A stretch of DNA of 64,000 nucleotides from Escherichia coli (GTDB taxonomy: Bacteria > Pseudomonadota > Gammaproteobacteria > Enterobacterales > Enterobacteriaceae), in the NCBI RefSeq assembly GCF_009931435.1, contig NZ_CP043414.1. One strand, written 5' to 3'. The notes beneath the pieces are model-generated. The model was given only the letters and a program-made list of their open reading frames with translations, ran no database searches and was not told the origin of the DNA. The translations under genes were made by a program, and so were the position numbers. This document shows, one piece after another, positions 6,555-39,227 of this stretch (the first letter of the stretch is position 1; the number at the start of each line of letters is the position of its first letter).

Positions 6555-7808
6555 ATGTTAAAGCGTGAAATGAACATTGCCGATTATGATGCCGAACTGT
6601 GGCAGGCTATGGAGCAGGAAAAAGTACGTCAGGAAGAGCACATCGAACTGATCGCCTCCGAAAACTACACTAGCCCGCGCGTAATGCAGGCGCAGGGTTC
6701 TCAGCTGACCAACAAATATGCTGAAGGTTATCCGGGCAAACGCTACTACGGCGGTTGCGAGTATGTTGATATCGTTGAACAACTGGCGATCGATCGCGCG
6801 AAAGAACTGTTCGGCGCTGACTACGCTAACGTCCAGCCGCACTCCGGCTCCCAGGCGAACTTTGCGGTCTACACCGCGCTGCTGGAACCCGGCGACACCG
6901 TTCTGGGTATGAACCTGGCGCATGGCGGTCACCTGACTCACGGTTCTCCGGTTAACTTCTCCGGTAAACTGTACAACATCGTTCCTTACGGTATCGATGC
7001 TACCGGTCATATCGACTACGCCGATCTGGAAAAACAAGCCAAAGAACACAAGCCGAAAATGATCATCGGTGGCTTCTCTGCATATTCCGGCGTGGTTGAC
7101 TGGGCGAAAATGCGTGAAATCGCTGACAGCATCGGTGCTTACCTGTTCGTTGATATGGCGCACGTTGCGGGACTGGTCGCTGCTGGCGTCTACCCGAACC
7201 CGGTTCCTCATGCTCACGTAGTGACTACCACCACTCACAAAACCCTGGCGGGTCCGCGCGGCGGCCTGATCCTGGCGAAAGGCGGTAGCGAAGAACTGTA
7301 CAAAAAACTGAACTCTGCCGTTTTCCCTGGTGGTCAGGGCGGCCCGTTGATGCACGTAATCGCTGGTAAAGCGGTTGCTCTGAAAGAAGCGATGGAGCCT
7401 GAGTTCAAAACTTACCAACAGCAGGTCGCGAAAAACGCTAAAGCGATGGTAGAAGTATTCCTGGAGCGCGGTTACAAAGTGGTTTCCGGCGGTACTGATA
7501 ACCACCTGTTCCTGGTTGATCTGGTTGATAAAAACCTGACCGGTAAAGAAGCTGACGCCGCTCTGGGCCGTGCTAACATCACCGTCAACAAAAACAGCGT
7601 ACCGAACGATCCGAAGAGCCCGTTTGTAACCTCCGGTATTCGCGTGGGTACTCCGGCGATTACACGTCGTGGCTTTAAAGAAGCCGAAGCGAAAGAACTG
7701 GCTGGCTGGATGTGTGACGTGCTGGACAGCATCAATGATGAAGCCGTTATCGAGCGCATCAAAGGTAAAGTTCTCGACATCTGCGCACGTTATCCGGTTT
7801 ACGCATAA
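6555..7808 (+). CDS. glyA: Serine hydroxymethyltransferase
   Basis: 417 aa from [22 protein letters not shown]; PLP-binding region [14 protein letters not shown] present. Confidence 0.95.
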
Positions 7809-37106: not shown

Positions 37107-37883
37107 ATGTCCGAAACAAAAAACGAACTTGAAGACCTGCTGGAAAAAGCAGCAACCGAACCGGCGCACCGCCCGGCCTTTTTCCGTACTCTACTGGAAT
37201 CCACTGTCTGGGTACCAGGTACGGCGGCGCAGGGCGAGGCAGTGGCTGAAGATAGCGCGCTTGATTTACAGCACTGGGAAAAAGAAGATGGCACCAGCGT
37301 TATTCCTTTTTTTACCTCGTTAGAAGCACTTCAACAGGCGGTTGAAGACGAACAGGCATTTGTCGTAATGCCCGTTCGCACATTGTTTGAGATGACCCTT
37401 GGCGAAACGCTCTTCCTTAATGCCAAACTGCCAACCGGTAAAGAATTTATGCCGCGTGAAATCAGTTTGCTGATTGGTGAAGAAGGGAATCCGCTGAGCA
37501 GTCAGGAAGTACTGGAAGGCGGTGAATCGCTGATATTATCGGAGGTCGCAGAGCCGCCAGCACAAATGATTGATTCACTTACCACCTTATTTAAAACCAT
37601 TAAGCCGGTGAAGCGTGCTTTTATTTGTTCAATTAAAGAGAACGAAGAGGCACAGCCTAATTTACTTATTGGCATTGAAGCTGATGGCGATATCGAAGAA
37701 ATTATTCAGGCGGCGGGAAGTGTAGCGACCGATACATTACCTGGTGATGAACCAATCGATATTTGCCAGGTGAAAAAAGGGGAAAAAGGAATTAGCCACT
37801 TTATTACCGAACATATTGCGCCATTCTATGAACGTCGCTGGGGTGGATTCCTGCGTGATTTTAAACAAAATCGGATAATTTAA
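37107..37883 (+). CDS. sseB: Serine sensitivity enhancing protein SseB
   Basis: 258 aa from MSETKNELEDLLEKAA; K-12 synteny. Confidence 0.8.
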   Translation: MSETKNELEDLLEKAATEPAHRPAFFRTLLESTVWVPGTAAQGEAVAEDSALDLQHWEKEDGTSVIPFFTSLEALQQAVEDEQAFVVMPVRTLFEMTLGETLFLNAKLPTGKEFMPREISLLIGEEGNPLSSQEVLEGGESLILSEVAEPPAQMIDSLTTLFKTIKPVKRAFICSIKENEEAQPNLLIGIEADGDIEEIIQAAGSVATDTLPGDEPIDICQVKKGEKGISHFITEHIAPFYERRWGGFLRDFKQNRII

Positions 37884-37889
37884 AATATG

Positions 37890-38372
37890 CCGCCCAAAGG
37901 GCGGCATTCGGGCTTACTTGCTGTTCTGAAGGTTGTTAACCATCAGTAAATTGTTGCCGGAGGGACTCCGGTTATTATTTACCTCGGTTAACAGCGCACC
38001 AGAAACAATAAGTACGATACAGAAGTACCGTATCTTCATTGTGCGGTCCATGCGAAGACCGCATCACGACAGCACCACTGGCGATATTGCCGCGATAGCA
38101 AGCGCTGTGGGGTGCCTGCATTTACGGTCATGGAACATCCTTTCCTAAAGCCAGCGCCCGTTTGCGAGACGGCGAAAAGGGCCGTCACGAATAATACTCT
38201 CATATTTGAATAATTACTCTATTTATTATCTTGACTTGGCCAGGCATAAAAGAGAGTATTTCAACACTGTGGGGTGCCTGCGTTGCTCCGGCAACACAAG
38301 TCAACCTGCTGGAAAGGCCGCGAACCAGACCAGCAATAAAAAACCGCCAAATTCGGCGGTTTTTTATTGCCT
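37890..38372. ncRNA. ryfA: sseB-sseA intergenic region corresponding to the K-12 ryfA sRNA locus (strand and boundaries not resolved)
   Basis: About 490 bp non-coding gap in the K-12 ryfA position; hairpins near both ends (about 37887-37915 and 38340-38372) and the motif ctgtggggtgcctgc present twice (about 38104 and 38268). Confidence 0.35.
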
Positions 38373-38381
38373 GTAAAAAGC

Positions 38382-39227
38382 TTATTTCAATGGCTCAACC
38401 GGTAAATCTGCCCGTGCGCCCCATTCACTCCATGCGCCGTCGTACAGTTTCACGTTTGGCACATCCAGCGTCGCGAGTGCCAACAAAACCACGGCTGCCG
38501 TTACACCAGAACCGCAGCTGACGATAATTGGTTTGTCGTAGCTGACACCGCGACCAAAAAATATCGCATCCAGTTCATCGGTCGTTTTTAGTTCGCCTTC
38601 ACGGACCAGTTCCGTCCACGGAACGTTCAATGCACCGGGAATATGTCCGCGACGTAAACCTGGGCGAGGTTCATCAACTTCTGCGTTAAAACGTGTAGCC
38701 GGGCGGGCATCAATAATTTGCGCCGTATTTTCATGGCTTGCCAATAATACATCGGTTACTTTCACCACGGCTTCAGGATTAAACGCGGCGTTAAACTCTC
38801 CTTCCGGCAGCTCTACTGCGCCTTCTTCTAATAGCAGATCATCACGCTGCCAGCCTGCAAGTCCACCACCCAGAATCGACACTTTCTCTACACCAAAGGT
38901 GCGCAGCATCCACCATGCGCGTGGGGCTGAGAAAAGATTACCTTCGTCATAGACAATCAGGTGCTTATCCTGGTTAACGCCTAACTCACGCATCGCCACG
39001 GCGAACGTTTCCGGGCGCGGCAGCATGTGCGGAAGCGGGGAAGTGTGATCAGAAAGCGCTTCGATATCGAAAAACACTGCGCCGGGAATATGTCCATTCA
39101 GATACTCCTGGGCAACGTTACGATCTTCCTGTCCAGGCGGTGCCATGCGGGCATCGATAATCTGAATTTCCGGGTCATCAATATGTTCGGCGAGCCAGTC
39201 GGCTCCTACAAACCATGTCGTGGACAT
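38382..39227 (-). CDS. sseA: 3-mercaptopyruvate sulfurtransferase
   Basis: 281 aa from MSTTWFVGADWL; tandem rhodanese domains with active-site CGSGVTA. Confidence 0.9.
   Translation of the reverse strand: MSTTWFVGADWLAEHIDDPEIQIIDARMAPPGQEDRNVAQEYLNGHIPGAVFFDIEALSDHTSPLPHMLPRPETFAVAMRELGVNQDKHLIVYDEGNLFSAPRAWWMLRTFGVEKVSILGGGLAGWQRDDLLLEEGAVELPEGEFNAAFNPEAVVKVTDVLLASHENTAQIIDARPATRFNAEVDEPRPGLRRGHIPGALNVPWTELVREGELKTTDELDAIFFGRGVSYDKPIIVSCGSGVTAAVVLLALATLDVPNVKLYDGAWSEWGARADLPVEPLK

Follow-up and report, generated by a model that had tools for sequence, protein, structure and literature searches.

What occupies the spacer between sseB and sseA in Escherichia coli is the question raised by the 64,000-nt stretch of DNA analysed here (from contig NZ_CP043414.1; "the window" below means this whole stretch), where that spacer spans 37884-38381, bounded by the sseB stop (37883, plus strand) and the sseA stop (38382, minus strand). 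A preliminary description, made from the sequence alone, had placed the ryfA locus in the spacer and pointed to its Salmonella homologue, timP, the mRNA of a membrane toxin under small RNA (sRNA) control; both points were borne out. Rfam RF00126 (ryfA) matches 38185..37882 on the minus strand at full length (model positions 1-296 of 296) with 308.1 bits (E 3.5e-86; gathering score 80 bits), and a gene timP, "small toxic inner membrane protein TimP", is annotated by RefSeq under the spacer match in E. coli genomes. The spacer itself is present in 5425 of 5426 complete E. coli genomes. We conclude that it very probably holds a single copy of a known type I toxin-antitoxin module of enterobacteria, timPR (ryfA/ryfB). 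The analysis shows the identity of each element, the conservation of the open reading frame (ORF), co-variation of the seed with its target, and co-variation in the pseudoknot. The timPR locus is already known, and nothing reported here goes beyond the literature of 2017-2026 in kind. The parts of the module are as follows, with positions preceded by a plus sign counted along the timP transcript from +1 at 38185.

37882..38185, minus strand: timP mRNA (formerly ryfA sRNA), 304 nt from the 5' end at 38185 to the T-run of its terminator, as delimited by RF00126
37914..38039, minus strand: timP coding sequence, 41 aa, MKIRYFCIVLIVSGALLTEVNNNRSPSGNNLLMVNNLQNSK, from RefSeq annotation and an NCBIfam match
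38140..38179 (+7..+46), minus strand: stem-loop 1 (SL1), from the Rfam structure line, with AGGAAAGG as its 3' arm
38150-38156 (+30..+36), minus strand: pseudoknot site 1, CGCUGGC, in SL1
38124-38129 (+57..+62), minus strand: site 2, GACCGU, complementary to the 5' arm of stem-loop 4 (SL4)
38105..38122 (+64..+81), minus strand: TimR binding site (motif copy 1), the 5' arm and loop of SL2, with the variable region CACCC
38076..38082 (+104..+110), minus strand: pseudoknot site 3, GCCAGUG, in the SL3 loop, pairing with site 1
38043..38062 (+124..+143), minus strand: SL4, enclosing the timP Shine-Dalgarno sequence
38266..38368, plus strand: timR (ryfB-type) sRNA, about 100 nt, with a 5' seed, two stem-loops and a terminator; 5' end predicted
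38267..38284, plus strand: TimR seed (motif copy 2), CUGUGGGGUGCCUGCGUU

The small protein suspected in this spacer does exist, in an ORF that the preliminary description had not listed. RefSeq annotates timP (WP_244591678.1) at exactly window positions 37914..38039 on the minus strand in an E. coli genome that is 100% identical over the spacer, and the product scores 83.1 bits against NCBIfam NF040796 (toxic_TimP; cut-off 45). The ORF occupies +147..+272 of the transcript. An in-frame ATG at 38051 (+135) would give a 45-aa version, and the 45-codon ORF described for strain CFT073 likewise starts at +135 (PMC8205139), in agreement with a +1 at 38185. The N-terminus is hydrophobic and signal-like, with a Kyte-Doolittle hydropathy of 2.57 over residues 5-17 and of -1.28 over residues 21-41.

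Conservation was judged on an alignment of 17 loci, namely the window, K-12 and 15 further ryfA loci from Escherichia, Citrobacter, Superficieibacter, Yersinia, Rahnella and Erwinia, these 15 being the usable Enterobacterales among 120 listed matches to the pattern GCGGTCNNNGCANNGACCGCAC in genome contigs. The pattern proved too loose, most of the 120 listed loci being chance matches in G+C-rich genomes; no Salmonella record was among the matches listed, and the comparison with Salmonella is drawn from papers (Andresen et al. 2020, PMC7667032; Eleftheraki & Holmqvist 2024, PMC11228461; Eleftheraki et al. 2026, PMC13000454). The timP ATG and an uninterrupted ORF of 38-42 codons were found in all 17 loci. 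Indels inside the ORF are all of 3 or 6 nt; the 5' untranslated region (5'UTR) has indels of 1 and 2 nt. Codon-position variability in this alignment failed to separate the TimP frame from the frame of an upstream ORF, because the RNA is structurally constrained and the C-terminal half of TimP is variable; the informative coding tests are start and stop conservation and indel phase.

The second half of the module was visible as a repeat. A 15-nt motif had been noticed twice, about 165 nt apart, and left unconnected to any RNA; we find CTGTGGGGTGCCTGC at 38105 and 38267, 162 nt apart, with exactly these two copies in the window, extending to 17 of 18 identical bases, and shuffles gave 0.16 matches when up to two mismatches were allowed. 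The copies are direct repeats on the plus strand, so that a plus-strand RNA beginning with copy 2 is complementary to copy 1 in the timP mRNA, and promoter-like sequence before copy 2 together with a terminator about 100 nt further on defines such an RNA as a plus-strand sRNA of about 100 nt. Its sequence contains no AUG. TimR 38267-38284 and timP +64..+81 form an uninterrupted 18-bp helix with one G-U pair (-36.1 kcal/mol), and on this complementarity the duplicated motif is the TimR/timP pairing site. The position of copy 1 agrees with the TimR site published for SL2 (PMC11228461), and both the 18-bp length and the place in SL2 match the Salmonella interaction, whose 18-nt complementarity was proven by compensatory mutants, with in vitro translation also carried out (PMC7667032). 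The same RNA has been named RyfB1 in Shigella, where divergent transcripts of about 100 nt fit the length of timR (PMC5333039). The window thus has a divergent sRNA upstream of timP, with a 5' end of about 18 nt complementary to SL2 and an intrinsic terminator, as timPR does. The small protein with an antisense regulator that had been proposed for this spacer therefore stands as a toxin mRNA with a pairing sRNA; what falls away is the reading frame then chosen and the cis-antisense arrangement, TimR being divergent.

Pairs of this kind recur across the alignment. A direct block of at least 10 nt is found at -97..-64 upstream and at +66..+87 in 12 of the 17 loci, with a sequence that differs among species, and the longest contiguous seed-target helix averages 17.2 bp for cognate pairs against 9.6 bp for non-cognate pairs (12 species). 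The TimR body is conserved in the 12 Enterobacterales loci, with a consensus of 23 pairs of which 4 show compensatory changes, and the seed is the unpaired 5' end and the most variable part. Contiguous-helix length was adopted as the measure of pairing after RNAduplex energy, calculated between full-length TimR and either the timP mRNA or tiles of 300 nt from the window, had been rejected as non-discriminating: shuffled TimR gave similar values, because long interior loops are allowed. No Rfam family matched TimR above threshold. The 3' two-thirds of TimR (38287-38368, plus strand) gave a sub-threshold match to Rfam AgrB (30.7 bits, E 0.014; gathering score 40), covering one stem-loop and the terminator, that is probably not meaningful.

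In its 5'UTR, the timP mRNA has the folds by which translation is controlled in Salmonella. Over the 17 sequences, pairing of the structure as a whole stands at 94% and drops to 37-49% once the partners are shifted by 1-3 columns. SL1 is 93% paired in its helix 1 and 100% in its helix 2, and the pseudoknot between sites 1 and 3, which has 7 bp in the window and is essential for timP translation in Salmonella (PMC11228461), is 93.8% paired, with 3 of its 7 pairs changed on both sides. SL4, all of whose 7 pairs are invariant (100% paired), contains the timP Shine-Dalgarno GGA at +137..+139, 7 nt ahead of the AUG, and the interaction of site 2 with site 4, known together with SL4 from the Salmonella timP mechanism (PMC13000454), is 94% paired. 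The sequestered Shine-Dalgarno sequence, the SL1-SL3 pseudoknot and the complementarity of site 2 are all present in the window.

The signals by which the two RNAs would be started and ended lie in the following positions, the promoter elements being assigned by position and by conservation of the TTGAC-N-GAGTAT arrangement.

38186..38265, both directions: putative divergent promoter region, A+T-rich, read from the sequence
38191-38196, minus strand: putative timP -10 element, TATTAT, assigned by position
38231-38236 and 38254-38259, plus strand: putative timR -35 (TTGACT) and -10 (GAGTAT) elements, with a 17-nt spacer
37887..37907, minus strand: timP intrinsic terminator hairpin, ATGCCGCCCAAAGGGCGGCAT, with a T-run to 37882
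38338..38365, both strands: bidirectional intrinsic terminator of timR (plus) and sseA (minus), AAAAAACCGCCAAATTCGGCGGTTTTTT, with the form A6-CCGCC...GGCGG-T6

In the O157, K-12 and 19KM1831 loci, each timR copy is preceded by the TTGAC-N-GAGTAT arrangement. An inverted repeat (38193-38208 and 38245-38260, arms 81% complementary and 36 nt apart) holds two GAGAGTATT boxes, through which the -10 regions of timP and timR are mirror images of each other; it could be a site for a common regulator or simply two similar -10 boxes. The sequence features listed in the preliminary description all exist, with small corrections of coordinates. A hairpin it had seen near 37887-37915 is ATGCCGCCCAAAGGGCGGCAT at 37887-37907, in which a terminator scan counts 9 pairs (7 being G-C) ahead of ATTTTAAATT, and which makes up the 3' end of the ryfA model in Rfam. 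The bidirectional hairpin placed by it at 38340-38372 lies at 38338-38365, within arms 38333-38351 and 38352-38370 that are 95% complementary, is flanked by A-runs and T-runs on both strands, and is the terminator of the TimR consensus fold. Terminator-like sites number 6 in 37700-38600, against 1.1 expected (about fivefold).

The published Salmonella mechanism most likely applies to this allele, in view of these shared parts. The minus strand would be transcribed into the 304-nt timP mRNA, with the structured 5'UTR (SL1 to SL4) followed by the 41-codon TimP ORF, and the plus strand, from a divergent promoter about 80 bp away, into the TimR of about 100 nt, whose unpaired 5' end would form a duplex with SL2. 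The timP Shine-Dalgarno sequence would be locked in SL4, and translation would need both the 7-bp SL1-SL3 pseudoknot and the 6-nt pairing of site 2 with the 5' arm of SL4, a structural switch that would free the Shine-Dalgarno sequence. By binding SL2, TimR would destabilise this active conformation and block initiation. A structural switch controlling timP translation is the published model of the Holmqvist laboratory (PMC11228461, PMC13000454), and Salmonella TimP is toxic, inserts in the inner membrane, its target, and makes the membrane leaky (PMC7667032), toxicity having been shown only for the Salmonella protein. For this E. coli allele we infer the transcription start sites, the translation and toxicity of TimP, and repression by TimR; in the E. 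coli strains CFT073 and CH138, both ryfA and timR are reported to be expressed (PMC13188913).

Several points weigh against a working toxin-antitoxin module here. A consensus promoter scan found neither the timP nor the timR promoter, and the timR -10 (GAGTAT) and the timP -35 are weak. Several of the cognate seed-target helices are mismatched, those of the two closest Escherichia relatives reaching 10-12 bp. Deletion of timR has little effect on growth in avian pathogenic E. coli (APEC; PMC13188913) or Salmonella (PMC7667032), TimP production and toxicity in E. coli are said to remain "to be determined" (PMC13188913), and no protein was detected from Shigella ryfA1 (Fris et al., PMC5333039). 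In uropathogenic E. coli (UPEC), moreover, three alleles without the TimP ORF complemented the phenotypes of a ryfA deletion, which concern stress resistance, fimbriae and virulence (PMC8205139). These last two results also favour a different account, in which E. coli RyfA is mainly a base-pairing regulatory RNA, TimR (RyfB) is its sponge or partner, and the TimP ORF is dispensable or rarely used; the locus would then not be a working toxin-antitoxin system but a pair of sRNAs or a dual-function RNA. Also on its side, RyfA1 lowers ompC mRNA in Shigella (PMC5333039), and in APEC a ryfA deletion was attenuated while a ryfA-timR double deletion behaved like wild type (PMC13188913). We consider this account possible, if on balance doubtful, and its consequence for the class of the locus doubtful to the same degree: a pure non-coding RNA would not keep an ORF intact in 17 of 17 loci with in-frame indels only, and SL4, the pseudoknot and site 2, the devices that control the ribosome-binding site of that ORF, have all been conserved in the window. 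Neither role excludes the other, and a dual role as regulatory RNA is a live alternative that leaves the toxin-antitoxin module in place.

Two frames overlapping the 5'UTR bear on the remaining alternatives for how, and from which ORF, a toxin would be made.

38036..38203, minus strand: the 55-codon ORF of the preliminary description, made up of promoter sequence and timP 5'UTR; not a gene
38036-38131, minus strand: 31-codon upstream ORF, from the internal ATG at 38131, with a TGA that overlaps the timP ATG (ATGA)

The 31-codon upstream ORF covers the TimR site, SL3 and SL4 and has its own Shine-Dalgarno-like sequence, AGGAAAGG. The overlap of its stop with the timP start is an arrangement typical of translational coupling. 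Its translation upon opening of SL1 would let ribosomes unwind SL4 and couple into timP, adding a mok-like route to the toxin that TimR would also block and that Salmonella would lack, because its own upstream ORF has only 8 codons. That the ORF (38131..38036, minus strand) is translated and couples into timP in Escherichia alleles seems to us very improbable. An internal ATG had indeed been correctly placed 7 nt after AGGAAAGG, at 38131, but AGGAAAGG is not a free ribosome-binding site, being the 3' arm of SL1 and paired with CCUUUUC. Only 6 of the 17 loci have ATG as the start codon, K-12 having GTG and E. whittamii GCG; in Yersinia, Rahnella and Erwinia, where the RNA structure is kept, the frame is truncated to 8-25 codons. 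Both points speak against coupling of the hok/mok type. In Salmonella, mutation of the start of the 8-codon ORF left timP translation unchanged (PMC11228461). The comparative data thus make a contribution of the upstream ORF to toxin translation unlikely.

That the 55-codon ORF, or its internal 31-codon version, is itself the small membrane toxin, as had been proposed, is less probable still. The frame is open as described (38036..38203, 55 aa and a stop, starting MRVLFVTALFAVSQTGAGF), its N-terminus looks hydrophobic, the internal ATG lies 7 nt after AGGAAAGG, and the frame stays open for 60-68 codons in Escherichia and one Citrobacter. Its ATG (38201-38203), however, lies 18 nt upstream of the 5' end of ryfA, inside the -10 region of the timP promoter, and is missing in K-12, E. 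whittamii and Citrobacter. In a family search this ORF and two others in the 5' part of the RNA matched nothing; the TimP ORF matched. For the internal version, the pairing of AGGAAAGG in SL1, the poorly conserved start and the Salmonella start mutant count here as they did against coupling, and disruption of the frame with conservation of the RNA structure is the outcome that the preliminary description had itself named as speaking against its ORF. Comparison therefore largely refutes this ORF as the toxin.

Two other frames of the 5'UTR were rejected as genes, a 24-codon ORF (+48; 38064-38138, minus strand; MFHDRKCRHPTALAIAAISPVVLS), with an ATG in 9 of the 17 loci, and a 48-codon ORF (+65), with its start in 4, neither having a family match. 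The 24-codon frame is open in 13 of the 17 loci, Yersinia, Erwinia and Rahnella among them, and its SPVVL(S/T) end is conserved; its openness is likely caused by the constraint of RNA structure on SL2 and SL3. Least credible of all is that the 15-nt repeat is a chance match or a functionless relic of local duplication: the locus does duplicate in tandem (1-3 units in E. coli genomes), but by our estimate an exact 15-mer repeat within about 500 bp has a chance of only ~1e-4, the flanks of the two copies are unrelated, the two copies in other species differ from those of the window yet agree with one another and keep their positions relative to the 5' end of timP, and the pairing is the one that compensatory mutations proved in Salmonella.

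The module varies among E. coli genomes in both specificity and copy number. The window-type timR 51-mer (38250-38300) occurs in 579 of the 5426 genomes, including O157:H7 and O145:H28, and the exact window-type target 51-mer (38088-38138) in 82. One or two substitutions in the O157:H7 and SCPM-O-B-8794 targets put a mismatch into the helix; the seed/target pair of the window is among the better matched. Spacer-type loci were found at 7003 places in the 5425 genomes, up to 3 per genome, and their copy number runs from a single unit (in the window and O157) to three in tandem (in 19KM1831, L123 1-2070), each of the three made up of a 3' fragment of sseB, timP and timR. The targets of that array are of types G, K and G' and its seeds of types W, K and G, seed W having no cognate target there.

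K-12 strain BW25113 (L002 634-1188) has two timR-like genes in a region that has no counterpart in the window. The seed of the timP-proximal one, CTGAGACGCGCTTGC, mismatches its own timP target and matches the E. whittamii target exactly, and this gene looks like an orphan of another specificity class; the distal seed, CTGTGAAGCACCTGC, is the cognate of K-12 timP, with one G-U pair. Rfam IS128 (RF00125, 261 bits) covers the K-12-specific insert (L002 766-974, minus strand), from the point where 16 nt of the 5' end of a second timP survive together with their promoter to the terminator of the proximal timR, so that IS128 appears to be transcribed from a truncated second copy of timP. In the window, IS128 has only a 27-bit partial match, over the terminator. 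Outside Escherichia, the 5' parts of ryfA are rearranged in Yersinia similis and Y. aleksiciae, and no TimR-like seed was found within 450 bp upstream of ryfA in either; in Y. similis, Rfam Ysr224 (133.9 bits; L070 4361-4467, plus strand) lies directly upstream of ryfA on the same strand.

For annotation, the value of these results is that the spacer contains two genes that length-limited ORF tracks miss, a toxin gene of 41 codons and one for an sRNA, and the 55-codon candidate ORF should not be carried forward. The window is a clean single-copy "ryfA1-like" (CACCC) allele with an exactly cognate TimR, and such an allele could help settle whether any E. coli TimP is made and toxic.

The closest characterised relative is timP/timR of Salmonella enterica serovar Typhimurium SL1344, which belongs to the same ryfA RNA family. 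Both loci have a divergent TimR with an 18-nt 5' seed to SL2, and both have SL1 to SL4, the 7-bp pseudoknot, the pairing of site 2 with site 4 and the sequestered Shine-Dalgarno sequence. The TimP ORF starts at +147 in the window and at +145 in Salmonella (+145..+261; PMC7667032). TimP has 41 aa in the window and 38 aa in Salmonella and diverges in its C-terminal half, the two loci have different seed and target sequences, the upstream ORF of the 5'UTR has 31 codons rather than 8, and Salmonella has an extra gene, STM2534, between sseA and timP. Shigella dysenteriae ryfA1/ryfB1 (Fris et al. 2017, PMC5333039) is the same gene pair, divergent and with a RyfB of about 100 nt; it is present there in two tandem copies, against one in the window, and its complementarity is 16 of 18, against 18 of 18 in the window counting one G-U pair. 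That study (PMC5333039) described a five-nt variable region in four versions, CACCC being among three "ryfA1-like" ones.

E. coli K-12 (MG1655/BW25113) also has ryfA/timP between sseB and sseA. Its timP mRNA shares about 95% identity with that of the window, and 36 of the 41 TimP residues are identical by our count. Its target is CTGTGAAACACCTGC, with the variable region TGTTT where the window has CACCC, so that five adjacent bases differ, and TimR has changed to match. The spacer of K-12 exceeds that of the window by about 320 bp and contains two timR copies besides the remnant of a second timP (the Rfam IS128 region); the window, unlike K-12, has a single, exactly cognate pair.

Beyond the ryfA family, tisB/istR-1, shoB/ohsC, zorO/orzO and dinQ/agrB encode small hydrophobic inner-membrane toxins, as timP does. 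In these four systems the antitoxin sRNA is encoded beside, and not opposite, the toxin gene and base-pairs with about 18-20 nt of the 5'UTR, and the toxin mRNA is activated by nucleolytic processing. We know of no sequence relationship between any of them and timPR. Where loci of the tisB/istR-1 type depend on such processing, timP is controlled by a purely structural switch (PMC11228461, PMC13000454).

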